IMG/VR virus record: IMGVR_UViG_2124908004_000021
Length of the DNA stretch: 35,309 bases
Reading direction: 5' to 3' (one strand)
DNA from: an uncultured virus (IMG/VR IMGVR_UViG_2124908004_000021)
Lineage: Duplodnaviria; Heunggongvirae; Uroviricota; Caudoviricetes
Made by a program: the position numbers and the translations under genes. Positions within the stretch are counted from its first letter, which is position 1. Every line of letters begins with the position of its first letter. Shown here in pieces: positions 7,961 through 35,309 of this stretch. The notes below the pieces were generated by a model. It saw nothing but the letters and a program-made list of their open reading frames with translations, had not been told where the DNA came from and made no database searches.

Positions 7961-9219
7961 TTTCAACGGATCGCTTTGAAAAAGTAAACATAAACATGCT
8001 GGTGCCATACGCCCGTAACGCCCGCACCCACAGCAAGGAGCAGATTCTCCAGCTTCGGGCATCCATACGCGAGTTTGGGTTCGTCAACCCGGTCATCGTG
8101 GACAAGGATTTGAATGTCATCGCCGGGCATGGGCGCATCCTTGCTGCTAAAGAGGAAGGTTTCACGGAAGTTCCATGCGTGTTCGCCGAACACCTTACCG
8201 AAGCCCAGAAACGAGCATACATCATTGCTGACAACCGTCTCGCATTGAACGCCGGTTGGGATGCCGAAATGCTGTCTGTGGAGATCGCCGACCTCCAGGG
8301 TTCGGACTTTGATATCTCACTTCTCGGCTTTGACGACGCGGAACTCAACAGACTGCTGGGTGGTATGGAGAATGTCAAAGACGATGATTTTGACGTGGAC
8401 GCAGAGCTGCGGAAACCCGCTGTTACCAAGCCGGGCGACCTATGGCTTCTCGGTAACCACCGGCTGGTCTGCGGCGACAGCACCAAAGCAGAAACCTTCG
8501 AACTGCTCATGGATGGCAAGACCGCAAACCTTGTGGTGACCGACCCACCGTATAACGTGAACTACGAAGGTACGGCGGGAAAAATCAGGAACGACAACAT
8601 GGCGGACGCCAAGTTCTATCAGTTCTTGCTGGATGCGTTTACATTGACGGAAAAGGCGATGGCGCGGGATGCCAGTATCTATGTGTTCCATGCGGATACC
8701 GAAGGGCTGAATTTCCGCAGGGCCTTCTCCGACGCCGGGTTCTATCTGTCCGGGACGTGCATCTGGAAGAAGCAGTCGCTGGTTCTGGGACGCTCCCCGT
8801 ACCAATGGCAGCATGAACCGATTTTATTCGGCTGGAAGAAAACTGGCAAGCATGCCTGGTACTCCGACCGCAAGCAGTCCACAATATGGGAGTTCGACAA
8901 ACCCAAAAAGAATGCCGAGCATCCGACGATGAAGCCGGTGCCGCTGATTGCCTATCCCATTGTGAACAGTTCTATGACTGGGTGCATCGTCCTTGACCCC
9001 TTCGGGGGTAGCGGTTCAACCCTTATCGCCAGTGAACAAACTGAACGGATATGTTACACGGTTGAACTGGACGAAAAATATTGTGATGTTATTGTAAAAA
9101 GGTACATTGGGCAAATTGGTACGGATAAAGATGTATATCTCATTAGGGATGGTCAAAAAACACACGTTGACATGCCTGACCAAACTACTGATAATCCTGC
9201 AGCTTCCGTACAAAATTGA
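7957..9219 (+). CDS. ParB-N plus N6/N4 DNA methyltransferase (orphan)
   Basis: PYARNARTH, IAGHGR, ADNRL; catalytic TDPPY; HPTMKP; SAM-binding LDPFGGSGST. Confidence 0.92.
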   Translation: MISTDRFEKVNINMLVPYARNARTHSKEQILQLRASIREFGFVNPVIVDKDLNVIAGHGRILAAKEEGFTEVPCVFAEHLTEAQKRAYIIADNRLALNAGWDAEMLSVEIADLQGSDFDISLLGFDDAELNRLLGGMENVKDDDFDVDAELRKPAVTKPGDLWLLGNHRLVCGDSTKAETFELLMDGKTANLVVTDPPYNVNYEGTAGKIRNDNMADAKFYQFLLDAFTLTEKAMARDASIYVFHADTEGLNFRRAFSDAGFYLSGTCIWKKQSLVLGRSPYQWQHEPILFGWKKTGKHAWYSDRKQSTIWEFDKPKKNAEHPTMKPVPLIAYPIVNSSMTGCIVLDPFGGSGSTLIASEQTERICYTVELDEKYCDVIVKRYIGQIGTDKDVYLIRDGQKTHVDMPDQTTDNPAASVQN

Positions 9220-9220
9220 G

Positions 9221-9252
9221 TTGCTATTCCACAGCTTCAGAGTGATATATGT
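9221..9252 (+). promoter_or_regulatory. Candidate promoter motif B, copy 1 (start of accessory island)
   Basis: TTGCTA-N12-AGAGTGATATA; same layout as 27422-27450. Confidence 0.45.
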
Positions 9253-9284
9253 ACTCACAAAAGAAGCAAAGGAGGCTAATCATA

Positions 9285-10753: not shown

Positions 10754-12358
10754 ATACGCAAACTGAAGAAGTACAAGCCAACCACGTTTGTGGCACCGGA
10801 TTCTGTTTACAGCAAAGCCGCCGCCGATTATGCCGTTTCCTTTATCGAGGCCCTCTCCCACACCAAAGGCTCCTGGGCTGGTAAGCCCTTTGAACTTATC
10901 GACTGGCAGGAACAGATTGTCAGGGACGTTTTCGGCATCCTCAAACCCAGCGGATACCGCCAGTTCAATACTGCCTATGTGGAGATACCCAAGAAAATGG
11001 GTAAGTCTGAGCTTGCCGCTGCCATCGCCATTCTGCTCACCTGCGGCGACAACGAAGAACGTGCCGAGGTATATGGCTGCGCGGCGGACAGGCAACAAGC
11101 GTCCATCGTTTTCGAGGTAGCCGCCGATATGGTGCGGATGTGTCCGGCTCTTAATAGGCGTGTCAAGCTGCTGGCTTCCACGAAGCGGCTCGTATATCTG
11201 CCGACCAACAGCTTCTATCAAGTGTTGTCCGCTGAGGCGTATTCGAAGCATGGATTCAATATTCACGGAGTGGTCTTTGATGAACTGCATACCCAGCCGA
11301 ACCGGAAGCTGTTTGACGTCATGACTAAAGGCTCCGGCGATGCCAGAATGCAGCCGCTATACTTCCTGATCACCACAGCTGGTACGGACACGAACAGCAT
11401 CTGCTATGAAACGCATCAGAAAGCGCTGGACATCCTTGAAGGCCGGAAACACGACCCTACCTTCTACCCTGTGATTTTCGGTGCAAAGGAAGAAGACGAC
11501 TGGACTGACCCAAGGGTGTGGAAAAAAGCGAATCCCTCGCTCGGCATCACGGTTGGTATTGACAAGGTAAAGGCCGCGTGCGAATCGGCGAAACAGAACC
11601 CCGCCGAGGAGAACAGTTTCCGACAACTGCGGCTCAATCAATGGGTCAAACAGGCCGTCCGCTGGATGCCCATGGCGAAGTGGGATGCCTGCGCGTTTCC
11701 CGTCGACGCGGACAGCCTAAGCGGTCGGGTCTGCTACGGCGGGCTTGACCTTTCCTCCACTACGGACATCACAGCGTTCGTGCTGGTGTTTCCACCGGAG
11801 GATGAAACGGACAAATACAGCGTGCTTCCATTTTTCTGGATGCCGGAAGAGAATATCGATCTGCGTGTGCGGCGTGACCATGTGCAATACGACCTATGGA
11901 AAAAGCAAGGGCATCTTTTGACCACCGAGGGCAACGTCGTTCACTACGGTTATATCGAGCAATTCATAGAAAAGCTTGGTGAGCGGTACAACATCCGCGA
12001 GATCGCCTTTGACCGCTGGGGTGCTGTGCAAATGGTTCAGAACCTTGAGGGTATGGGTTTTACGGTGGTTCCTTTCGGACAGGGCTTCAAGGACATGTCG
12101 CCGCCCACCAAGGAGCTTATGAAACTCACGCTGGAAGAAAGAATTTCGCACGGCGGGCATCCGGTGCTGCGCTGGATGATGGATAACATCTTTATCCGCA
12201 CTGACCCTGCGGGTAACATCAAGCCGGACAAGGAGAAATCCACGGAGAGGATTGACGGCGCGGTGGCAACTATCATGGCGCTCGACCGTGCGCTTCGGAA
12301 TGGAGACGGTAATCGAGGTACATCAGTTTACGATGAAAGGGGGTTATTGATGTTGTGA
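10754..12358 (+). CDS. terL: Terminase large subunit; probable ATA start at 10754 (alternative GTG 10790)
   Basis: LIDWQ, EIPKKMGKS, VVFDELH, ITTAG, GGLDLSSTTD, RIDGAVATIMA; GGAGG at 10741-10745 precedes the in-frame ATA. Confidence 0.93.
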   Translation: MRKLKKYKPTTFVAPDSVYSKAAADYAVSFIEALSHTKGSWAGKPFELIDWQEQIVRDVFGILKPSGYRQFNTAYVEIPKKMGKSELAAAIAILLTCGDNEERAEVYGCAADRQQASIVFEVAADMVRMCPALNRRVKLLASTKRLVYLPTNSFYQVLSAEAYSKHGFNIHGVVFDELHTQPNRKLFDVMTKGSGDARMQPLYFLITTAGTDTNSICYETHQKALDILEGRKHDPTFYPVIFGAKEEDDWTDPRVWKKANPSLGITVGIDKVKAACESAKQNPAEENSFRQLRLNQWVKQAVRWMPMAKWDACAFPVDADSLSGRVCYGGLDLSSTTDITAFVLVFPPEDETDKYSVLPFFWMPEENIDLRVRRDHVQYDLWKKQGHLLTTEGNVVHYGYIEQFIEKLGERYNIREIAFDRWGAVQMVQNLEGMGFTVVPFGQGFKDMSPPTKELMKLTLEERISHGGHPVLRWMMDNIFIRTDPAGNIKPDKEKSTERIDGAVATIMALDRALRNGDGNRGTSVYDERGLLML

Positions 12359-13595
12359 GCATATTTTCAAATCTGTTTAAAGCGCGGGACAAGCCAGTAA
12401 ACCGTCTTCCGGGTAGCGACTACAGCTTCTTCTTTGGCCGTACGATAAGCGGTAAGGCGGTCAATGAACGAACTGCGATGCAAACAACGGCAGTTTACGC
12501 CTGTGTTCGGATATTAGCCGAAGCGATTGCCGGGCTACCTCTACAGGTATATCGGTATAAGTCTGACGGTGGGAAAGAAAAGGCGCTAAACCATCCCCTG
12601 TACCATCTGCTGCATACGGAGCCTAACCCAGAGATGACTTCATTTGTGTTCCGGGAGACACTGATGGGTCATCTTTTACTTTGGGGAAACGCCTATGCGC
12701 AGATTGTTCGTGACGGCGCGGGCCGGGTACTGGCGCTCTACCCGTTGCTGCCTGGCAAAATGAACGTCGACAGGATGGCAAGCGGCCAACTTTATTATGA
12801 ATACCGCACGGATACCGGCTCGATGATCCTGCGCCCGGAAGACGTCCTCCATATCCCCGGCCTTGGATTTGACGGCCTTATTGGCTACTCGCCTATCGCT
12901 ATGGCCAAGAACGCCATCGGCATGGCAATCGCCTGTGAGGAATACGGAGCGTCGTTTTTCGCTAACGGTGCGAATCCCGGCGGCGTGCTGGAACATCCCG
13001 GTGTCGTGAAAGACCCGAAGCGGGTACGCGAAAGCTGGAACACCGTGTACCAAGGCAGCGCCAATGCGCATCGCATCGCCGTATTGGAAGAAGGCATGAA
13101 ATTTCAGGCTATCGGTATTCCACCCGAGCAGGCGCAGTTTTTGGAGACGCGTAAATTCCAGATCAACGAGATCGCCCGCATCTTCCGTGTACCGCCGCAC
13201 ATGGTCGGTGACCTTGAGAAGTCGAGCTTCTCGAACATCGAGCAGCAGAGCCTGGAGTTTGTCAAATACACACTCGACCCTTGGGTGGTGCGCTGGGAAC
13301 AGGCTATTCAGAAGGCACTCCTTCTGCCATCCGAAAAGACATCATATTTTGCCAGATTCAATGTTGACGGATTATTGCGCGGCGACTATGCCAGCCGTAT
13401 GTCCGGGTATTCCACAGGAAGGCAGAACGGATGGCTTTCGGCCAATGATATTCGGGAACTGGAGGACATGAACCGGATAGCGTCGCAAGACGGCGGAGAC
13501 CTATACCTTATCAACGGTAACATGACCAAGCTTGCGGACGCGGGCGCGTTTGCCAACAAGAATACTCAAAAGACGGAGGAAAGAAAAATGCATAG
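12355..13595 (+). CDS. HK97-family portal protein (as sequenced, continues in frame into the protease up to 14283)
   Basis: AVYACVRILAEAIAGLP, LLLWGNAY, GLIGYSPI, IARIFRVPPHMVG, SNIEQQ, NDIRELED. Confidence 0.9.
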
Positions 13596-14283
13596 GAAGT
13601 TCTGGAACTGGGTCAGGAACGAAGACGGTGCCCGGACGCTGTATCTAGACGGCGCCATAGCCGAGGAGAGCTGGCTTGGGGATGAAATTACACCCAAGCA
13701 GTTTAAGACGGAACTGCTGTCCGGCGAGGGCGATATTACGATCTGGATCAACAGCCCCGGCGGCGATGTCTTCGCTGCAAGCCAGATTTACAACATGCTC
13801 ATGGACTACAAGGGCAACGTCTCTGTGAAGATCGACGGCATTGCGGCAAGCGCCGCGTCGGTGATCGCAATGGCGGGCGGCGAAGTCCTCATGTCGCCGG
13901 TATCCATGCTCATGATCCACAATCCCATGACCATCGCCATCGGCGATACGGAGGAAATGGGAAAAGCCATTGCCATGTTGGCAGAGGTTAAGGAGAGCAT
14001 CATCAACGCGTATGAACTGAAGTCCGGGCTGTCCCGCGCGCGGATATCGCACCTGATGGACGCCGAAAGCTGGTTCAACGCGAAAAAGGCGGTGGAACTG
14101 GGGTTTGCGGACGATATTCTGTTCACCGGGGCAGCGCCGCCGGACGCCGAGGTCACCGACGGCCTGATCTTCAACCGTCAGGCGGTTACCAACTCAATCC
14201 TGCGAAAACTGCCGCATAAAGAAAAGAACACAGGTACCCCGATTGAGTCGCTTCAGAAGCGGCTTTTTTTATTGAAACCTTAA
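13588..14283 (+). CDS. ClpP-like prohead maturation protease
   Basis: Own GGAGG RBS 13575-13579 and ATG 13588; WINSPGGDV, GIAASAASVIAMAG, MLMIHNP, AVELGFAD. Confidence 0.9.
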   Translation: MHRKFWNWVRNEDGARTLYLDGAIAEESWLGDEITPKQFKTELLSGEGDITIWINSPGGDVFAASQIYNMLMDYKGNVSVKIDGIAASAASVIAMAGGEVLMSPVSMLMIHNPMTIAIGDTEEMGKAIAMLAEVKESIINAYELKSGLSRARISHLMDAESWFNAKKAVELGFADDILFTGAAPPDAEVTDGLIFNRQAVTNSILRKLPHKEKNTGTPIESLQKRLFLLKP

Positions 14284-26733: not shown

Positions 26734-26841
26734 NNNNNNNNNNNNNNNNNNNNNNNNNNNNNNNNNNNNNNNNNNNNNNNNNNNNNNNNNNNNNNNNNNN
26801 NNNNNNNNNNNNNNNNNNNNNNNNNNNNNNNNNNNCTCGTT

Positions 26842-26863
26842 GATTTTTGCTTATCAGCGGGAG
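26842..26863 (+). promoter_or_regulatory. Candidate motif A, copy 2
   Basis: GATTTTTGCTTATCAGCGGGAG, similar to 519-540; upstream part lost in N gap. Confidence 0.35.
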
Positions 26864-26875
26864 GTGCTATGTTTT

Positions 26876-27268
26876 ATGACAAAAACACAGAAAGCCCTGA
26901 TCGCCCGTATGCGGCGTGATGGCTTCAGCTATTCGAAGATATCGGCTGAGCTAAGTATACCCGTGAGCACGATAAAGTCCTTCTGCCAGGCCAACGACCT
27001 GGGCGGCATCCCGGTAGCCGACGTAAAAATCTGCCGCAATTGTGGAGCCAAGCTGAGACCTTCATCGCAATCCGCTGTTAAACGGTTCTGCTCGGATGCT
27101 TGCCGTGCGACATGGTGGAAGGAGCACCCTGATGAGATAAACCGGAAAGCTATCCGCAAAATTGTCTGTGCCCATTGCGGGAACGAGTTTAAAGCCTACA
27201 TAAACGGCAGTCGTAAATTCTGTTCCCATTCCTGTTATGCCAAGTCAAAGGTGGTGCGCCATGGGTAA
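26876..27268 (+). CDS. HTH plus double zinc-finger protein, paralogue 1
   Basis: GFSYSKISAELSIPVSTIKSFC; CRNC..FCSDAC; CAHC..FCSHSC; GGGAGGTG RBS. Confidence 0.82.
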   Translation: MTKTQKALIARMRRDGFSYSKISAELSIPVSTIKSFCQANDLGGIPVADVKICRNCGAKLRPSSQSAVKRFCSDACRATWWKEHPDEINRKAIRKIVCAHCGNEFKAYINGSRKFCSHSCYAKSKVVRHG

Positions 27269-27416
27269 GGAGGAGGCACTCATCCACTATACGACGGCCA
27301 TGATTATATTCAAAAAGTTCCTTTCTTGCGGCGTGATAACCGAGGAAGAATTTCACCAAATTGATGAAGTTCTGACCCAAAAATATGGTTTATCAACGCA
27401 GAGTATTTATCGCTGA
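27261..27416 (+). CDS. 51-aa SHOCT-like peptide (not in ORF track)
   Basis: MGKEEALIHYTTAMIIFKKFLSCGVITEEEFHQIDEVLTQKYGLSTQSIYR; G.ITEEEF SHOCT signature; overlaps the upstream stop. Confidence 0.78.
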   Translation: MGKEEALIHYTTAMIIFKKFLSCGVITEEEFHQIDEVLTQKYGLSTQSIYR

Positions 27417-27421
27417 AATGC

Positions 27422-27450
27422 TTGATAAACCAGGCATTTAGAGCGAATAT
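27422..27450 (+). promoter_or_regulatory. Candidate promoter motif B, copy 2 (start of recombinase operon)
   Basis: TTGATA-N12-AGAGCGAATAT, then AAAGGAGG RBS. Confidence 0.45.
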
Positions 27451-27476
27451 ACGATGACGAAAGGAGGCATTGATTA

Positions 27477-27899
27477 ATGAAAATGAAATCAAGGCAAAAA
27501 GAACAGATCAGGCAGCTTCGTGCTGAAGGACAGAGTTATAAACGGATCGCCGGTTTGCTTAGCGTGCCCGTAAGCACAATTGCATCCCACTGCCATCGCA
27601 ATAATCTGACCGGAATGATGGCGTCTGTCTATGACAGTCCGGGCTACTGTCGAACTTGCGGGAAAAGGCTAAAGCGCTCCTCGCAGTCCGCTGTAAAGAA
27701 GTTTTGTTCCGACAAGTGCCGGATGAAATGGTGGAAGGCCCACCCCGAAAAGCTCAACCGGAAGGCTGTTCACACCGTTCGGTGCGCCCAGTGCGACACC
27801 GAGTTTGTGTGTTACACCAGCGCAAAGCGGATTTACTGTTCACGCAAATGCGCAGCCACTCACCGATACCAAAGGAATGACGGAGGTGGCGCCAAGTGA
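27477..27899 (+). CDS. HTH plus double zinc-finger protein, paralogue 2
   Basis: GQSYKRIAGLLSVPVSTIASHC; CRTC..FCSDKC; CAQC..YCSRKC. Confidence 0.82.
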   Translation: MKMKSRQKEQIRQLRAEGQSYKRIAGLLSVPVSTIASHCHRNNLTGMMASVYDSPGYCRTCGKRLKRSSQSAVKKFCSDKCRMKWWKAHPEKLNRKAVHTVRCAQCDTEFVCYTSAKRIYCSRKCAATHRYQRNDGGGAK

Positions 27900-28309
27900 A
27901 AAAAGTACATGAACAAATCAAAAAACTCAGGGAAGCCGGATGCGGCTATGGAGAAATCGCAAGGGTTCTCAGCATTTCTGAAAACACGGTCAAGTCTTAC
28001 TGCCAAAGACACGGCCTCGCCGGTTTCAGGTCGAATACGGTGCTTGAGGGTATTTACTGCCGGTTTTGCTTCAAAGCCATCGAACAGACTAAGAGGCGTA
28101 GACAGAGGAAGTTCTGCTCGGATAAATGCCGCTCGAAATGGTGGAATGCCCATCCGGAATTGGTGAACCGCAAGACCATCTACCACTTTATATGTCCGGT
28201 GTGCGGAAATGATTTTGTAAGCTACGGCAACGCAGGGCGTAAGTTCTGCTCCCACGAATGCTACATCGCCCAACGCTTCTCTGATGGGAAGAGGAGGGAT
28301 GACGAATGA
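27896..28309 (+). CDS. HTH plus double zinc-finger protein, paralogue 3
   Basis: GCGYGEIARVLSISENTVKSYC; CRFC..FCSDKC; CPVC..FCSHEC; GTGA coupling. Confidence 0.82.
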   Translation: MKKVHEQIKKLREAGCGYGEIARVLSISENTVKSYCQRHGLAGFRSNTVLEGIYCRFCFKAIEQTKRRRQRKFCSDKCRSKWWNAHPELVNRKTIYHFICPVCGNDFVSYGNAGRKFCSHECYIAQRFSDGKRRDDE

Positions 28310-29628
28310 GAACCGTAACAGAAATAAAGCCTGCATTTCCTGTTATGCCAAGCATGAAGCGCGTTGCCGCATACGCGAGGGTTTCCAGCGACAAAGAAGG
28401 TATGCTCCATTCCCTTGCCGCTCAAGTCAGTTATTACAGCGGATATATTCAACAGCATAATGATTGGGAATATGTCGGTGTATACGCGGATGAAGCCCTG
28501 ACCGGCACAAAAGATAACCGTCCGGAGTTCAAGCGACTCATTGCCGACTGCAGGGAAAACAAAATCGATCTTATCATTACCAAGTCCATATCCCGCTTCG
28601 CCCGTAATACGGTTGACCTGCTTGAAACGGTACGAGAGCTGAAGCTGCTGGGCATCGATGTATATTTCGAGGAGCAGAACATCCACTCGATGAGCAACGA
28701 CGGCGAGCTCATGCTCACCATCCTCGCTTCCTACGCGCAGGAGGAAAGCTACTCGGTTTCGGAAAACTGCAAATGGCGCATCCGAAAAAGGTTTGAGCAA
28801 GGTGAGGTCGTCGGGTTCTTCAACATGTACGGCTATAACATCACCAAGGACGGCATTTTCATCAACGAGGAACAAGCTGCCGTCGTGCGTATGATTTTTG
28901 AGGACTATATTGGCGGCATGGGTGGCCACAAGATAGCAAAGAAGCTGAACGCTATGGGGGTTCCAAAACACCTCGGTGGTAAGTGGAAACCCACCAGCAT
29001 TACACATCTTTTGCGTAACGAAAAATATACGGGCAATGCCCTGCTCCAAAAGACATTCGTGGTTGACCACCTTACGAAACGGCAGATAACAAATACAGGT
29101 CAGCTTCCGAGATATTACGCCGAGCAGACACATCCTGCAATTATCAGCGTTGAGATTTTTGAAAAGGCTCGCCAGATCAGTGCTGAGAGAGCCTCCTACA
29201 ATCACGCAATTGGCGGGAAAAAGAATCCGAAATACCCTTTCACCGGAAAAATCCTCTGCGAATGCTGCGGGAAGCACTATAAAAGGAAAATCACCAACTA
29301 CAAGCACCAATGGCAGTGTATGACCTACCTCGACCATGGAAAAAATGAGTGCCAAGCCAAGCAGATACCGGAAACTGTCCTGCTGTCGGTCAGTACCGAG
29401 GTTCTGGGCTTATCGGAGTTTGACGAGGGTGCCTTCTCAGAGCAGATTACCGAGATACGGGTTCCGGGCGCCAACCGTCTGATTTTTGTCTTTGCGGACG
29501 GTCGAACGGAAGAACGCACATGGCGTGACCGCTCCCGCTCTGAAAGCTGGACATTGGAAATGCGTGAGGAGGCGCGGCGGCGCGCTATTGAGAGGAGGAA
29601 CAGCACATGGCAAAAGGAAAAGCAATAA
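28306..29628 (+). CDS. Large serine recombinase 1 (short C-terminus, no long coiled coil evident)
   Basis: AAYARVSS, DEALTGT...RPEF, TKSISRFARN, NEKYTG, zinc ribbon CECCG..WQC..C. Confidence 0.93.
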   Translation: MRTVTEIKPAFPVMPSMKRVAAYARVSSDKEGMLHSLAAQVSYYSGYIQQHNDWEYVGVYADEALTGTKDNRPEFKRLIADCRENKIDLIITKSISRFARNTVDLLETVRELKLLGIDVYFEEQNIHSMSNDGELMLTILASYAQEESYSVSENCKWRIRKRFEQGEVVGFFNMYGYNITKDGIFINEEQAAVVRMIFEDYIGGMGGHKIAKKLNAMGVPKHLGGKWKPTSITHLLRNEKYTGNALLQKTFVVDHLTKRQITNTGQLPRYYAEQTHPAIISVEIFEKARQISAERASYNHAIGGKKNPKYPFTGKILCECCGKHYKRKITNYKHQWQCMTYLDHGKNECQAKQIPETVLLSVSTEVLGLSEFDEGAFSEQITEIRVPGANRLIFVFADGRTEERTWRDRSRSESWTLEMREEARRRAIERRNSTWQKEKQ

Positions 29629-31190
29629 CGGTTATACCGGCAACTATACAGAAGGTCTCGGGGCAGCATGTCTCTTCCATGACAAAACGACGCGTGGCGG
29701 CATATGCCCGTGTTTCTACCGACAGTGAGGAACAGCTTACCAGCTACGAAGCCCAGGTGGATTATTACACCAAGTTCATACAGCAACGGACTGACTGGGA
29801 GTTTGTCACCGTTTATACAGACGAGGGTATTACAGCGGTCAATACAAAACGGCGCGAGGGCTTCAAACAAATGGTCGCCGACGGGCTTGCCGGAAAGTTC
29901 GACCTGCTCGTTACGAAGTCCGTCTCCCGCTTTGCCCGGAACACGGTCGACAGTCTGACCACCGTCCGTAAGCTCAAGGAGAAAAGCGTCGAGGTCTGGT
30001 TCGAGAAAGAGAATATCTACACCCTCGACAGCAAGGGCGAACTGCTCATAACGATTATGTCGTCGCTGGCGCAAGAGGAAAGCCGCTCCCTATCGGAAAA
30101 CGTGACTTGGGGCCAGCGGAAGCGCTTCTCTGACGGGAAGGTCAGCATGCCTTATAAGCAGTTCCTCGGTTATGAAAAGGGCGAGGATGGGCTGCCAAAG
30201 ATAGTGGAAGCCGAAGCAGAAATCGTCCGCATGATATTCCGACAGTTCACCGAAGGGAAAACCCCATCGGCGATTGCGAAGTATTTAGGAATTCAGGGGA
30301 TTCGGACTCCATCGGGTAAAAAGACATGGCAATCCAGCACCGTGCAGTCCATCCTCACAAACGAAAAATACAAGGGCGATGCGCTTCTACAGAAGAAGTT
30401 CACAGTGGATTTCCTGACAAAAAAGATGAAGGAAAACCAAGGTGAGGTGCCGCAATACTACGTTCAGAACAGCCATCCTGCCATCATCGTACCGGAGGAA
30501 TTCGACTCGGTACAGGCGGAGATGGAGCGCCGAAAAAACCTCGGCAGGCCGCGCACCTGCAACAGCCCGTTTTCCTCGATGATCGTCTGCGGCAAATGCG
30601 GTGGGTATTACGGCCCCAAGGTATGGGGCAGCAACACAAAATATCGTCGGACAATCTGGCAGTGCAATGATAAGTATAAGGGTGAAGATGTCTGCAGGTC
30701 GCCACACCTGAATGAGGATGATTTGAAGGAACGGTTCCTCACGGCATTCAACATCCTGATTGGCAAACGAAAGAAGCTTCTGGATGACTGTAACCTTGCT
30801 TGTGACACGCTCAGTGATTGCACCAAGATTGAAAAGGAAATCGCCGAACGCCGCCGGGAGATGGAGGTGGTCAGCGAACTTTCGCGGAAGGCCATATATG
30901 AGAATGCCAATTCTGCCATCAACCAGACAGTGTTTACTAAACGTAACAACACGTATCTTGAGCGGTACCGGGCAGCCAAAGAGCGTGTCGATGCACTAGA
31001 GGCCATTCGTTCAGAGCGACTCGGGAAGGCCCTTATGCTGAAGTCCTTCATACAGGACATCAAGTCCCAGCCGCGCTTAATAGAGGAATTCGATGAAAAG
31101 CTGTGGAGCGTTTCCTTAGATAAGGTTGTGGTCATAGACGACGAACGGCTGGCGTTCCATTTCAAAAACGGCAAAGTGATTGAGACATAA
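29607..31190 (+). CDS. Large serine recombinase 2
   Basis: AAYARVST, TKSVSRFARN, NEKYKGD, CGKCG..WQC..C, coiled coil, FHFKNG end. Confidence 0.93.
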   Translation: MAKGKAITVIPATIQKVSGQHVSSMTKRRVAAYARVSTDSEEQLTSYEAQVDYYTKFIQQRTDWEFVTVYTDEGITAVNTKRREGFKQMVADGLAGKFDLLVTKSVSRFARNTVDSLTTVRKLKEKSVEVWFEKENIYTLDSKGELLITIMSSLAQEESRSLSENVTWGQRKRFSDGKVSMPYKQFLGYEKGEDGLPKIVEAEAEIVRMIFRQFTEGKTPSAIAKYLGIQGIRTPSGKKTWQSSTVQSILTNEKYKGDALLQKKFTVDFLTKKMKENQGEVPQYYVQNSHPAIIVPEEFDSVQAEMERRKNLGRPRTCNSPFSSMIVCGKCGGYYGPKVWGSNTKYRRTIWQCNDKYKGEDVCRSPHLNEDDLKERFLTAFNILIGKRKKLLDDCNLACDTLSDCTKIEKEIAERRREMEVVSELSRKAIYENANSAINQTVFTKRNNTYLERYRAAKERVDALEAIRSERLGKALMLKSFIQDIKSQPRLIEEFDEKLWSVSLDKVVVIDDERLAFHFKNGKVIET

Positions 31191-31194
31191 AATT

Positions 31195-31289
31195 TTCGTC
31201 CACCCCTGCGAGAAATTCGTCCACTCCTAATAAAAGTTCGTCCACCAAGCGTTATCGGTGGACGAACTTTTATCAAGTGATAGCACTTG
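31195..31289. repeat. Terminal repeat array / candidate att region
   Basis: TTCGTCCAC at 31195, 31216 and 31237 (21-bp period); perfect 17-bp IR 31230-31246/31257-31273; palindrome CAAGTG-atag-CACTTG 31274-31289. Confidence 0.85.
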
Positions 31290-32738
31290 CTCCAACTGAT
31301 CCTTAGAAGAACACTCAAGTTCTAAGGGTAACGATGATTGGCCATCTTGTATGTTGTACAGGATGGTCATTTTGTCATCATAGAGTATTATTTTGCGGAC
31401 GCACGTATCCACAAGCGCCTTGCGGTATTTCAGGTCATTGACGTCACCTTTCTTGAACCGCTCAAAGAAGAATTTCACTTGGGATATAGTCACTACGGGA
31501 TACTGTATCGTTTCTTCGGCAAGCTGCTTCTCAAGCTCGGTGCGCTCCGTTTTCTTTTGCATTATACGGTCTGTGATGATGTCATCAATCTGGCCTCTTT
31601 CCAAGGCTTTCAACAAGTTTTCTGTGGCCTTCTCATTCTCTTTCAACAGTTTTTGCAACCGCTGCATAGTAGGAGAATTACTTTCCTTTTGGCAGAACGC
31701 CACAACCTCTTTGGCGATTTTATCTAAGTTGCCGTCAGTCAGTATCTTCTTTGTTTCTCTGACAACCAAATCTTCGATATAATCTTTCTGCACCGTCTTT
31801 TTATCACACAGACGTTTTCGTCCCTGCACGCAGATGTAATAGTAATACTTTTTACCGCTCCGGCTGGTGCCGGTGATGCCGGTCATCATACTGTCACAGC
31901 GCCCACAGAATAGCTTTGTTGTTAAGATGTATTCTGCCTTTGCTTTGGGCCTTACAGGCGCTTTCCTGTTCTTCTCCAGCATGGCTTTCACTTTGTTGAA
32001 TAACTCATCAGAGACGATGCGGGGAACGCCGTCAGGTATATCGCCGCCCACGTACGTGTACACTCCGATATATCGTTTGTTGGTGAGAATTCGGCGTATG
32101 CTGTTTTTGTCATATTCATTGCCCCGGGAAGTTTTTATATGTGCGTTATTTAAATAGCGGGTGATTGTGGCCATGTTCTCGCCCATGGCGTACATTTCAA
32201 AAATCTGCTGGACGATGGGCGCGATTTCCTCGTCAATCTGGAAACGCTTATTTTCATCAACCTTAAAGCCAAGCGCGATATTGCCACCAGTAGACAGGCA
32301 TTTTTGAGCATTTATATCCATACCACGCCGGATTTTTTGCCCAAGTTCAGCCGAATAATACTCAGCCATTCCTTCCAATACAGACTCAATAAGTATTCCG
32401 CTTGCATCCTCCGTGATATTCTCCATCGCTGATAATACACGGACGTCGTTTTTCTTGAGTTTGGCTTTATTAGTGGCGCTATCATATCGATTACGGGCAA
32501 AGCGGTCTAACTGATAGACAATGACATACTTAAATTGTTTTTTTGCGCTATCCTCAATCATCTTTAAGAATTCTGGCCTTTTGTCATTCGTGCCACTCAT
32601 TGCGCGATCTATGTATTCGTGGATGACGGTATAATCATTACGTTTAGCAAAATCGTAACAGCTTTTAAGTTGGCCTTCAATAGACTGCTCAGTCTGATTA
32701 TGGGAACTATAACGGGCATATATTACTACGTTGGTCAT
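31227..32738 (-). CDS. Large serine recombinase 3 (integrase of the neighbouring element)
   Basis: VIYARYSS...SIEGQ, DRAMSGT..RPEF, YQLDRFARN, CGRC..YYIC..C, coiled coil. Confidence 0.93.
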   Translation of the reverse strand: MTNVVIYARYSSHNQTEQSIEGQLKSCYDFAKRNDYTVIHEYIDRAMSGTNDKRPEFLKMIEDSAKKQFKYVIVYQLDRFARNRYDSATNKAKLKKNDVRVLSAMENITEDASGILIESVLEGMAEYYSAELGQKIRRGMDINAQKCLSTGGNIALGFKVDENKRFQIDEEIAPIVQQIFEMYAMGENMATITRYLNNAHIKTSRGNEYDKNSIRRILTNKRYIGVYTYVGGDIPDGVPRIVSDELFNKVKAMLEKNRKAPVRPKAKAEYILTTKLFCGRCDSMMTGITGTSRSGKKYYYYICVQGRKRLCDKKTVQKDYIEDLVVRETKKILTDGNLDKIAKEVVAFCQKESNSPTMQRLQKLLKENEKATENLLKALERGQIDDIITDRIMQKKTERTELEKQLAEETIQYPVVTISQVKFFFERFKKGDVNDLKYRKALVDTCVRKIILYDDKMTILYNIQDGQSSLPLELECSSKDQLEQVLSLDKSSSTDNAWWTNFY

Positions 32739-32756
32739 TTAATTCGAGGCCCCCTA

Positions 32757-32786
32757 TTGACAAATTTAGATCAAATAAATTATACT
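32757..32786 (+). promoter_or_regulatory. Sigma-A-type promoter divergent from recombinase 3
   Basis: TTGACA 32757-32762, 18 bp spacer, TATACT 32781-32786; ACTGTG/CACAGT inverted repeat (32784-32813) overlaps the -10 and start. Confidence 0.65.
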
Positions 32787-32792
32787 GTGAAT

Positions 32793-32895
32793 GATAAATT
32801 AAATAAACACAGTTTTTAAATATCGGTCAGAGGACCACATTTCACTACGTTTGGTCGTGGAGAGAAGAAAGGTGGTATGAGGCCGATTTTTGTTT
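32793..32895 (+). ncRNA. Candidate ~100-nt small RNA or attenuator leader
   Basis: Downstream of the promoter; long imperfect hairpin 32822-32887 with UUUGGU apical loop followed by a U-rich tract. Confidence 0.45.
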
Positions 32896-33027
32896 GGGGT
32901 AAATTCCCGCATTTAATTTATTAAATATCTAGGTTCTGGCAATACCGAGCAAATAGTTTTCATTATGAAAACCCTAAACATCCTGATCAGAGTATCGAAT
33001 TTAACGCCAGAAGCAGGTTGAGCATTT

Positions 33028-33195
33028 ATGGACTCGCAAAGCGAGGCTGCACTTTTTCGTTCGTACGCGTTTTTGTTGTACAAGGATATTCAACAATACA
33101 TGAAAGAGCATCAGGATGAGTATGTAGCATATTTAGAAAATCAGGAAAAAGAAGAATCCACGCATGTAAAGAAGAGCAAGGCAAAAAAGGGCTAA
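33028..33195 (+). CDS. 55-aa hypothetical protein (not in ORF track)
   Basis: MDSQSEAALFRSYAFLLYKDIQQYMKEHQDEYVAYLENQEKEESTHVKKSKAKKG; weak AGGT RBS; followed by hairpins. Confidence 0.55.
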   Translation: MDSQSEAALFRSYAFLLYKDIQQYMKEHQDEYVAYLENQEKEESTHVKKSKAKKG

Positions 33196-33359
33196 ATTTG
33201 CGCTTTGCCTTTTTAGCCTTGCCTTTTCAGAGCGCACAGGAGCTACAAGGTTAAGCCGACATGGCATCTTAATGGTTGCTATTTGGAACGACGCGGGGCA
33301 TCTCTCGTAAGGCTTGAGAGGACGAGGGATGCCATCAAATTTAAAATTTGGAGGACAAC

Positions 33360-34766
33360 ATGGATAGTAAAAGTATTAATCAAAGAATTAAAATGTCAGA
33401 TATCACTCAATATGAGCCTACTGAGTTTGGGATGGCACAATTGTTTGTTGATATCTTCGGTGAGGGAATCAGGCATGTAATCCTCGAGAAACACTATTAT
33501 GTTTACAAGCCGAAAAAAGGTATCTGGTTGCAAGATCAAGAAGAATTTGTTGAACGATATATGGAGCGATTTTTGTCTGAGGTGTGTCTGTGGCTGATAA
33601 GCCAAATTGAGAATGTAGGACAGCGGCGAAGATTTAGGGCTTGGATAGATAAGCGCCAATCCAATGCGGCTGTCAATAATATTCTAAAAAGTGTCAGGCG
33701 TAAGCCGGGGATAACGATTAACAGCACAGAATTTGATAAGCAAGCAAGGTACTTCAAACTAAAAAATTGCGTGTTTGACTTTGGGTCAAGCGAGTGTATA
33801 TCGGACGATAAGAATTTCCTGATAACCAAAGAAGCAGGCGCAAGATATGATGCTGAGGTCAAGGACAATACATGGCGCGATTTTATGATGAGCATTATGG
33901 ACAACGACGAGGAGATGTATGATTATCTTCTGCGAACTATATTGTATGCCATGCAGGGAAATCCCGTCTATCATTGTATGTTTATGCTACTTGGCCTTAG
34001 GCAGAGGAATGGTAAAAGCACATTTGTTGGTGGATTGTCGGCTTTTTTTGGGCGCTATGGAACCTCTCTGTTGCCTGAATCGTTAGCAAAGACCAGAGTA
34101 GGTAATGGAGACTCCCCATCGCCTGACATCGCCAAATTGAAAGGAGCACGCTTTGTAAGCATAGCGGAGCCGGCTAAAAAAATTACACTAAATGTTGCGC
34201 TGATAAAAGCTATAACCGGCATGGATATTATCAGCGCAAGAAAACTGTATAGTAACTATGAGGACTTCGTTAATCATGCGGTTTTCTTTATGCACATGAA
34301 TAGGCTCCCTGTTGTGGATGACCCGACGCTTTTTGGAGGAGAACGGGTTATCGTTATACCCTTTGATGTTCACTTTGAGGAAGCGGATAGGGATACACAA
34401 TTGCCGAAAAAACTTGTGACTGACGGCGCGTTATCAGGACTACTGAATGAGGTTTTACGTATCCAGAAGAAATATAAGGGTGTAGGTGTTAAAGAGCGAT
34501 TACCAAAGAAAATACAGAAGGCCACAAAAGACTTCGAGTATAAATGTGACCCGATTTCTCATTTTATGAGGAAATTCTTTGTGAGAGGTGAAGGCTTGTG
34601 GATTCCCATGTCCGAAATTTATAAAAGGTATAAGAAATTTGCATTTGAAATGGGGATTATACCTATTGCGTCAAGATCGCTTACAATTGAGCTGAAAGAA
34701 AGAGGATATGATATAAAAAGAAGGGGCAAAGGCGGCAATGGCCTAAAGGGATATTCTTGGAAGTAA
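33360..34766 (+). CDS. P4/D5-family SF3 helicase (D5_N, ATPase, winged helix); no N-terminal primase domain evident
   Basis: GLRQRNGKST, DIAKLKGARFVSIAE, IKAITGMD.ISARKLY, MNRLP, VIPF; GGAGG RBS before ATG 33360. Confidence 0.88.
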   Translation: MDSKSINQRIKMSDITQYEPTEFGMAQLFVDIFGEGIRHVILEKHYYVYKPKKGIWLQDQEEFVERYMERFLSEVCLWLISQIENVGQRRRFRAWIDKRQSNAAVNNILKSVRRKPGITINSTEFDKQARYFKLKNCVFDFGSSECISDDKNFLITKEAGARYDAEVKDNTWRDFMMSIMDNDEEMYDYLLRTILYAMQGNPVYHCMFMLLGLRQRNGKSTFVGGLSAFFGRYGTSLLPESLAKTRVGNGDSPSPDIAKLKGARFVSIAEPAKKITLNVALIKAITGMDIISARKLYSNYEDFVNHAVFFMHMNRLPVVDDPTLFGGERVIVIPFDVHFEEADRDTQLPKKLVTDGALSGLLNEVLRIQKKYKGVGVKERLPKKIQKATKDFEYKCDPISHFMRKFFVRGEGLWIPMSEIYKRYKKFAFEMGIIPIASRSLTIELKERGYDIKRRGKGGNGLKGYSWK

Positions 34767-34852: not shown

Positions 34853-35309
34853 CAGGCTGCTGACAAAGAGTTGGCAGCCTTTTTCGTTATCTAAAAGTAT
34901 GGTAAAATAAAAGAAACACCGGAGAAAGCTATGCTGGAAGAACAAAACAGCCATCAAGGCGAAATGGAACTGGTCATTATCGACACACTGGTTCCTCAAG
35001 ACCATCTTTTACGAAAGATCAAAAAACATATCGATTTCAGCTTCATCAATGACATGTGCCGTGGATATTACTGTCTGGATAATGGGCGTCCGGCCATAGA
35101 GCCTGTCATAATATTTAAAATATTGTTCATTGGATATCTTTTTGGTATTCGCTCAGAGCGGCGATTGGTTGAAGAAGTCAAGGTCAACATCGCATACAGA
35201 TGGTTTTTGGATTACAAACTGACAGACAAAATACCCGATGCGAGCGTGATTTGGCAGAACAGGCGCAGACGATTCAAGAATACGGATATTCCCCAGAGGA
35301 TATTTGACA
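34853..35309 (+). mobile_element. IS1182-family insertion sequence, left part
   Basis: Candidate left end CAGGCTGCTGACAAAG next to hairpin AACTCCCT..AGGGAGTT; transposase follows. Confidence 0.75.
34931..35309 (+). CDS. IS1182-family transposase, N-terminal (DUF772) part, truncated by window
   Basis: MLEEQNSHQGEMELVIIDTLVPQDHLLRKI..IDFSFI..NGRPAIEP..LFIGYLFGIRSERRL..NIAYRWFL..IPDAS. Confidence 0.9.
   Translation, partial: MLEEQNSHQGEMELVIIDTLVPQDHLLRKIKKHIDFSFINDMCRGYYCLDNGRPAIEPVIIFKILFIGYLFGIRSERRLVEEVKVNIAYRWFLDYKLTDKIPDASVIWQNRRRRFKNTDIPQRIFD

Follow-up and report, generated by a model that had tools for sequence, protein, structure and literature searches.

Prophages of Clostridia and resistance-carrying streptococcal prophages commonly carry tandem pairs of serine recombinases. 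In Φ1207.3 and Φm46.1 two overlapping genes for large serine recombinases (LSRs), of 412 aa and then 521 aa, follow the lysis cassette; the accessible text of the source only suggests that the two recombinases cooperate, and it leaves orf55 unannotated (PMC4260502). We found that orf55 of Φ1207.3 encodes a SHOCT_2 peptide (E 5e-20) and is followed by the same promoter-like motif as in the locus described here. That locus lies in the window, a 35,309-nucleotide stretch of DNA from an uncultured virus (IMG/VR record IMGVR_UViG_2124908004_000021), and it differs in its genes for HTH/double-zinc-finger proteins (ZnF): Φ1207.3 reads SHOCT-Rec-Rec with no ZnF within the 6 kb examined, and Φm46.1 has none in its module, its ZnF being ORF28, ahead of a methylase. 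Among GenBank phages, the ten that match ZnF3 best are all NatCom/IMGVR records; in one of them, labelled Ca. Heliusvirales, the lysin is followed by a ZnF gene, a small ORF and recombinases. The likeness to Ca. Heliusvirales is drawn from module genes that resemble those of labelled records, and the module there has a single ZnF, unlike the window; the accessible text on this group mentions only a common 'DNA invertase' (PMC11283538).

CcrA and CcrB of SCCmec are likewise a bicistronic LSR pair, one shorter and one longer. CcrAB is described as free of a directionality factor (RDF) in the accessible part of its source (PMC5595907), whereas the type of pair found in the window nearly always has a SHOCT gene upstream. 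The serine-integrase triplets of streptococcal ICEs, in the available text, are conserved multi-LSR operons with position-specific subunits (PMC4701971); these are three LSRs on conjugative elements, whereas the prophage in the window has two LSRs, accompanied by ZnF and SHOCT genes. SPβ/SprB, GirC/GirX and Int30 also have a small separate gene beside the LSR and differ in having one LSR each. GirX (42 aa) and the two-helix SPβ RDF (~58 aa) are close in length to the SHOCT hairpin of 51 aa. The literature that we searched, mostly without subscription papers and without supplements, held no study of the small genes of such modules and no directionality factor for tandem serine-recombinase pairs; searches joining serine integrase, SHOCT and prophage, or CcrA/CcrB and coiled coil, returned nothing, and SHOCT with recombinase gave unrelated matches only. 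How directionality works with an LSR that has no coiled coil is a mechanistic question relevant to building integrase tools.

Anatomy of the right end of the prophage

The right end of this siphophage prophage carries three ZnF genes, a SHOCT_2 peptide gene and two LSR genes (Table 1), and the ORFs and profile matches confirm this anatomy as the sequence-only reading had given it. All three paralogues have the layout HTH-CxxC-FCSxxC-WWxxH-CxxC-(F/Y)CSxxC and match the phrog_2308 (HTH/double zinc finger) profile with E values of 2e-42, 1e-38 and 2e-46 for ZnF1, ZnF2 and ZnF3, over most of its 138 positions, a full-length profile match in each case. Stop/start coupling had been proposed for ZnF2, ZnF3 and both recombinases; it holds for ZnF2/ZnF3 and ZnF3/Rec1 (4 nt each) and not for Rec1/Rec2, which overlap by 22 nt with no stop/start overlap. 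ZnF1 and the SHOCT gene overlap by 8 nt.

Table 1. Features of the recombination module and its surroundings (positions in the window)
Feature	Position	Strand	Description
N run	26734-26835	n/a	masks most of the ZnF1 upstream region
ZnF1	26876-27268	+	130 aa; HTH and two treble-clef-like zinc fingers; phrog_2308; occupies the usual place in the module
SHOCT_2 peptide	27261-27416	+	51 aa; PF20612; two-helix hairpin; candidate directionality factor
Promoter-like motif TTGATA-17-GAATAT	27422-27450	+	conserved; directly before Rec1 in relatives
ZnF2	27477-27899	+	140 aa; old sister of ZnF1; lacking in the closest relative (L262)
ZnF3	27896-28309	+	137 aa; GTG start; orthologue in L262
Rec1	28306-29628	+	440 aa; LSR without coiled coil by alignment
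Rec2	29607-31190	+	527 aa; LSR with coiled coil by alignment
Repeat TTCGTCCAC, three direct copies and one inverted	31195-31273	n/a	inside the prophage right end; partly retained in L262
Short palindrome	31274-31289	n/a	putative right attachment site; relatives diverge here
Recombinase 3	31227-32738	-	convergent; part of the neighbouring primase-bearing element

An N run lies just 5′ of ZnF1, and we therefore put the possibility of an assembly artefact to the test. An independent Logan contig from run X3 (1588 bp, 95% identical, 77 differences and no gaps, covering 26852-28439) bridges all three ZnF copies, and contigs from run X1 span 27029-27687 and 27756-29284, which rules out misassembly as the source of the triplication. 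L076, L182 and L263 are a single record that begins 16 bp before ZnF3 and matches the window at 99.97% identity, and so give no independent support.

Resolvase, Recombinase and zinc-ribbon domains in both Rec1 and Rec2 place them among the LSRs; both score far below the NCBIfam equivalog cut-offs for CcrA, CcrB and CcrC (137 and 116 bits, where CcrB requires 900). In each alignment, 84 of 84 rows have the catalytic serine (Ser27/Ser37), already noted as retained in both recombinases, together with the arginines. Rec1 also appears to lack the long coiled coil, as stated earlier: in a pairwise alignment it misses about 110 residues of the DBD2 coiled-coil insertion of Rec2, but this is the norm for its family. 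Recombinase 3, which the sequence-only reading had taken together with the module for follow-up, is part of a neighbouring element outside it: similarity to L262 stops at 31286, and the last ~525 bp of L262 bear another gene. The end of similarity to L262, and a contig from run X2 that aligns only up to 31294, mark the palindrome at 31274-31289 as the putative right attachment site.

Copy number and age of the zinc-finger genes

The ZnF-SHOCT-LSR-LSR module is common and ZnF expansion is rare. No tandem copies occur among 182 ZnF genes in 86 clusters, or among 36 matches from 29 of 400 sampled genomes, in agreement with the earlier statement that relatives usually carry one copy. The survey of copy number and synteny that had been called for thus answers one doubt, that triplication might be common, in the negative; the other, that the genes might be unlinked to recombinases, proved half true (see below). 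L262 has two copies, orthologues of ZnF1 and ZnF3, and L396, from an unrelated lineage, has an independent ZnF duplication into the same slot. As a rare copy-number variant the triplication is of little weight in itself.

Copies 1 and 2 do share SSQSAVK and PVSTI, and the proposal that they were recently duplicated is ruled out by 46% amino acid identity and a pS of 0.76, with synonymous sites saturated; they are old sisters. ZnF3 separates from both in quick trees, and a tree uniting all three copies is not rejected (p-AU 0.70). From the tree and the saturation, the split of copies 1 and 2 probably predates that of the window and L262, and L262 would have lost copy 2 when 410 bp were deleted between GAACA(G/A)ATCA microhomologies, found at 27501 and 27911. 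Copy 2 could instead have been gained from a diverged relative. The comparisons establish the anatomy, the rarity of the expansion, the age order of the copies and their dispensability across lineages.

It is conceivable, and in our view highly doubtful, that the ZnF genes are nearly neutral passengers, the DNA-binding part of an HNH/DUF559 endonuclease without its nuclease. Their zinc-finger part matches PHROG HNH families in all three copies (E <=2e-11), many longer homologues bear HNH or DUF559 domains, the ZnF comes after an HNH gene where it sits in the packaging region, and copy number is labile. The PHROG HNH match is confined to the zinc fingers, however, and the Pfam HNH domain is absent from all three paralogues (E up to 0.1), so they do not belong with the HNH homing endonucleases. 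Against L262, dN/dS is 0.10 for ZnF1 and 0.19 for ZnF3, showing purifying selection on copies 1 and 3; none of the ten changes between ZnF2 and its 93% relative affects a Cys or the HTH, and the position at the head of the operon is conserved, all of which speaks against a passenger. The likeness of the HTH to LuxR/sigma-4 domains is weak. An AF2 model of ZnF2 (pLDDT 84, pTM 0.40) gave no match at E <=0.001 in a fold search, and an ESM Atlas search returned nothing beyond the same families.

Genomic contexts and the candidate directionality factor

The sequence-only reading had cast the paralogues as directionality or architectural factors of a multi-subunit switch. ZnF genes adjoin LSRs in 66 of 86 clusters, a count biased by the use of ZnF queries, and this would suit the paralogues as RDFs, one per recombinase or as a hetero-oligomer. 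RDFs differ in fold from one another, a zinc site is predicted in the RDF of TG1, and one phage on record, that of Int30, has two similar RDFs, both working. Nevertheless, ZnF is missing from 11 of 52 Rec1 (LSR-pair) clusters, with none in the Φ1207.3 module, and a role as required subunits of such a switch is not supported either. Among 30 ZnF loci drawn from the sample of 400 genomes, 13 have SHOCT and LSR genes, 13 precede a ParB-methyltransferase, one is an LSR fusion and three are other; the link to serine recombinases thus stands for a large share of cases, and methyltransferases are equally frequent neighbours. In four clusters the ZnF precedes a Tn916-type Xis and a tyrosine integrase, with Xis in the SHOCT slot. 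A factor kept with and specific to its cognate LSR would not be distributed in this way. The integrase promoter-like motif also precedes copies 2 and 3, and L262 does without copy 2. In the accessible portion of PMC12286644, fused RDFs block integration in assays, and the natural ZnF-LSR fusions therefore argue against RDF activity as well. We consider the paralogues very unlikely to be RDFs, and the directional part of the earlier proposal is unsupported.

The same fusions leave the architectural part of that proposal possible, if on the unlikely side. The ZnF proteins would act as cofactors bound to the repeats at 31195-31273, aiding synapsis by Rec1 and Rec2 in place of the coiled coil, with extra copies under the integrase promoter as stoichiometric subunits. 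In nine proteins the ZnF is fused to the C-terminus of an LSR that, judged by eye, is short after the zinc ribbon with no long coiled coil; L343-L345 have split genes, LSR then ZnF, and P0056 is a SHOCT-DBD2-ZnF fusion. That duplicates arose in this slot on two independent occasions, and that four repeat copies lie beside the putative att site, is also in keeping with it. However, at least three repeat copies follow Rec2 in just 11 of the 75 modules that have a ZnF and in 1 of the 7 that have none, and with no association with ZnF presence we rejected the repeats as ZnF sites. The ZnF genes found ahead of tyrosine integrases and the roughly half of sampled ZnF genes in the packaging region also weigh against such a role. 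G121 and G023 have a packaging-region copy and none in the recombination module; such a copy may supply ZnF, so that a phage whose module is without the gene need not lack it altogether.

SHOCT_2, rather than the ZnF paralogues, is the better RDF candidate, judging by its distribution and position. The window peptide matches PF20612 with E 4e-13 (49.8 bits against a gathering cut-off of 24), SHOCT is present in 50 of 52 Rec1 clusters, it holds the slot that Xis occupies elsewhere, and it lies upstream of the promoter-like motif. Of the 30 best genome loci, 29 show an LSR following within 500 bp and the remaining one lies at a contig edge; this is the association expected of an RDF kept with and specific to its LSR, as found with a profile that was built from LSR-adjacent genes and is biased towards such linkage. 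A fold search gave generic hairpins (best Z 6.4) and nothing outstanding. A tblastn search of phage records with a SHOCT gave no match even though Φ1207.3 carries one, which shows that search to be insensitive. The promoter-like motif had been taken to head ZnF2, ZnF3 and both recombinases; relatives have conserved it (30.2 bits, where shuffles reach at most 7.0-9.5), and a strict promoter scan did not call it, finding 4 sites against 4.0 expected and none at 27422. When motifs were sought de novo 5′ of ZnF genes, no hit in the window stood above shuffles (16.3 against 13.8-16.0).

Proposed reading: an ordinary module with an optional zinc-finger factor

We favour, at a probability of about 0.55, an ordinary recombination module in which a single lineage has raised the optional ZnF regulator or accessory factor to three copies. 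The module would be that of a widespread Bacillota siphophage group, with lysis genes, ZnF, SHOCT_2, an internal promoter, an LSR without and an LSR with a coiled coil. From their HTH and two flexibly linked zinc fingers, the ZnF proteins are predicted to be sequence-specific DNA-binding factors. They would probably work in trans, regulating at the level of the operon or serving as accessory factors rather than as directionality factors. Phage lambda has an int-only promoter inside xis. By analogy, the internal promoter alone would give Rec1 and Rec2 without SHOCT, and thus integration, and transcription from upstream would add SHOCT, leading to excision; SHOCT_2 offers a precise RDF candidate and the conserved motif a switching logic. 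Extra ZnF copies may settle behind the integrase promoter because this slot offers ready-made expression and a ribosome site.

The LSR fusions and the L396 duplication into the same slot suggest a benefit of co-expressing ZnF with the LSRs, which would suit a regulator and a recombination cofactor alike. It is possible that the module is instead an undescribed multi-protein machine, with a heteromeric LSR pair (one without a coiled coil), a SHOCT_2 RDF kept off during integration by the int-only promoter, and ZnF on arm-type repeats by att, which we consider unlikely. If it were so, fusing ZnF to an LSR and duplicating it repeatedly behind the integrase promoter would both serve to raise the supply of the ZnF subunit. 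Together, the window locus and two-copy L262 form a natural deletion series for ZnF function.

The three-copy array and its history

The triplication of the HTH/double-zinc-finger gene (ZnF) is real, rare and selected, although what it expands is an optional gene within a module of a known type. The window corresponds to a siphophage prophage (antirepressor, helicase, HNH, terminases, portal, capsid and tail proteins, holin, LysM lysin), whose last module consists of the ZnF, SHOCT and recombinase genes. The genes, motifs and overlaps described in the sequence-only reading were confirmed apart from small corrections, and ZnF1, ZnF2 and ZnF3 all belong to phrog_2308. Since a run of Ns ends 40 bases upstream of ZnF1, mis-assembly was tested by comparing contigs from 4 of the 22 listed sequencing runs with the window. 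Run X3 yields one 1588-bp contig that spans 26852-28439 with 77 differences and zero gaps, and contigs from X1, a run of a second study, bridge both junctions, ruling out mis-assembly of the triplication; the three-copy arrangement is real. Elsewhere in the window, the portal and a Clp protease seem to share one 642-aa frame.

Features of the window
Feature	Position	Description
Motif upstream of BRO antirepressor gene	497-548	GGGTTCGAAT...TTTTTCGC(A/T)TATCGGC
Second Rec1-type motif	9219-9253	upstream of 332-aa ORF at 9249
Portal-Clp protease frame	12355-14283	642 aa
Motif upstream of ZnF1	26837-26876	3′ half only
ZnF1	26876-27268	
SHOCT	27261-27416	SHOCT_2 (PF20612) peptide
ZnF2	27477-27899	
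ZnF3	27896-28309	
Rec1	28306-29628	large serine recombinase (LSR) without coiled coil
Rec2	29607-31190	LSR with coiled coil
Prophage right end	31286-31294	divergence from relatives
Recombinase 3	31227-32738 (-)	convergent LSR
Separate element	31227-34766	convergent LSR (3′ end into prophage end), 55-aa ORF, D5-type primase
DUF772 transposase start	34931-35309	

The sequence-only reading took one ZnF copy as usual in related prophages, and our surveys agree. ZnF queries fetched 181 loci with 182 ZnF genes (86 clusters at 90% identity), none of them in tandem. Among 400 genomes sampled within one class, that of a Ruminococcus genome picked because it bears the module, 29 gave at least 36 ZnF matches (best ten candidates per genome; one genome unscored), none of them adjacent. 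A survey centred on Rec1 gave 159 loci, and after removal of 18 with less than 1000 bp upstream the remaining 141 formed 52 clusters; by our count from the listed clusters, 39 have a full ZnF, 2 a fragment and 11 none, and two copies occur in one, that of L262, the closest relative. A further 75 loci, found with a fusion protein as query, added one more two-copy lineage (L396 and L397, 99.9% identical). In GenBank phages, ZnF occurs at 165 places in 144 records.

The L262 module is 85% identical to the window and has the order ZnF1-SHOCT-ZnF3-Rec1-Rec2, with a second ZnF that starts as ZnF2 and switches to ZnF3 at a microhomology that the window has at 27501 and 27911. Two quick trees group ZnF1 with ZnF2 as sisters (SH-aLRT 96 and 94), yet synonymous sites between the two are saturated (pS 0.76, compared to 0.53 for ZnF1 between the window and L262), and the earlier suggestion that they were recently duplicated had to be dropped. 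The simplest reading of these sequences is an old duplication with a copy later lost in L262; gain of a copy from a diverged relative is a possible, less simple alternative. Purifying selection is seen in ZnF1 (dN/dS 0.10) and ZnF3 (0.19). The two L396 copies are 47% identical to each other and 28-37% to the window copies, and they group in a clade apart; we therefore consider that duplication independent. Its extra ZnF, too, lies downstream of the promoter-like motif.

Recombinases and the right end of the prophage

Across modules, the Rec1 proteins and the Rec2 proteins each group in a clade of their own. Rec1 is 406-452 aa long in 62 of 83 modules, and orf56 of Φ1207.3 is given as 412 aa (PMC4260502), which makes a short Rec1 the usual form. 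Longer forms (500-634 aa) occur in L001, L057, L089, L091 and others, some with a second recombinase-profile match C-terminally. The window diverges from its relatives at 31286-31294, and we therefore place the prophage right end there. Recombinase 3 runs into that end from the opposite side, is accompanied by a D5-type primase and is a separate element. Lineage-specific 8-mers in three or four copies directly follow Rec2 in 12/82 modules versus 0/82 coding controls (L012, L026, L110, L139, L255 and L325 are examples). In L250, L251, L315 and L319, two full ZnF-SHOCT-Rec-Rec modules face each other, as if two elements lay head to head at one site.

Role of the zinc-finger proteins

The AF2 model of ZnF2 shows an HTH of three helices plus a pair of small finger domains whose mutual packing is not fixed (pLDDT 84, pTM 0.40). 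By cluster, ZnF lies before SHOCT and an LSR in 66 of 86, a ParB-methyltransferase in 7, and Xis with a tyrosine integrase in 4, with 9 other or cut; 30 fetched genome loci comprised 13 with SHOCT and an LSR, 13 with a methyltransferase, 1 LSR fusion and 3 others. With 8000 candidates scored, at least 89 longer proteins matched ZnF; at least nine join ZnF to an LSR C-terminus, and among the matches listed at least four are N-terminal joins without the catalytic Ser region.

The paralogues had been proposed as recombination directionality factors (RDFs), which now seems improbable: ZnF is missing from many LSR-pair modules, Φ1207.3 included, it precedes Tn916-type Xis genes with tyrosine integrases as well as methyltransferases, and it is naturally fused to LSR C-termini, whereas in engineered fusions of an integrase with an RDF, excision is favoured and integration blocked (PMC12286644). 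An architectural recombination cofactor, to which the link with recombination in the fusions points, is a less doubtful but still unlikely role, as the right-end repeats show no association with ZnF presence. We favour a trans-acting regulator or accessory factor (probability roughly 0.55), and give a mere passenger as little credence as an RDF. Two phages without ZnF in the module (G121 and G023) carry one some 30 kb off, among the packaging genes, and thus ZnF may be needed once per phage, acting in trans.

Single LSRs with a C-terminal zinc-finger domain were seen at loci L341 (with SHOCT upstream), L342 and L444 and in proteins P0050, P0054, P0059, P0060, P0062, P0065, P0066, P0069 and P0070; L343-L345 show a split form, an LSR then a separate ZnF. 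SHOCT, a zinc-ribbon domain and ZnF are naturally fused in P0056, and ZnF and SHOCT share one 311-aa frame in L115 (5968-6912).

SHOCT and the internal promoter-like motif

The main interest of the locus lies in the hypothesis of SHOCT and an internal promoter. Of the genes that accompany the LSR pair, SHOCT is the most constant (50/52 Rec1 clusters). Its family is large (2677 representatives at E ≤0.001), and the peptide is predicted to fold as a two-helix hairpin (pLDDT 93). It matched in 60 of the 400 sampled genomes, and at the best 30 loci an LSR lies just downstream in 29 and ZnF upstream in 11. Its position is the Xis slot of tyrosine modules, upstream of the promoter-like motif, and we tentatively regard it as a candidate directionality factor of the LSR pair. 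Counting against this role, CcrAB is reported to need no RDF (PMC5595907), SHOCT was undetected in 2/52 Rec1 clusters and in Φm46.1, and a fold search with it gave no standout match. The unannotated orf55 of Φ1207.3 (L476:2253-2414) encodes a SHOCT_2 protein, and the same promoter-like motif comes after it.

The top sigma-70-like match upstream of Rec1 in 83 modules was TTG(A/C)(T/C)(A/T)-17-(G/T)A(A/T)NAT, located 51-56 bp upstream of the Rec1 start in 60, with 17 bp as the best spacing (score 12.6 vs 10.7-11.7), and only 31 modules exceed their own shuffles at 5%. With a matrix of 71 sites that left out the window's lineage, position 27420 scored 30.2 bits and 9219 scored 20.9, compared to shuffled maxima of 7.0-9.5. 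We infer that the motif acts as a promoter; since it overlaps the SHOCT 3′ end or comes after it, the recombinases would be expressed without SHOCT or ZnF1. The match at 9219 suggests a phage-wide promoter class; the 332-aa ORF that follows had no Pfam match. A different motif, GGGTTCGAAT...TTTTTCGC(A/T)TATCGGC, noticed by eye upstream of the BRO antirepressor gene, of ZnF1 in L262 and, as its 3′ half, of ZnF1 in the window, is possibly a phage-specific promoter.
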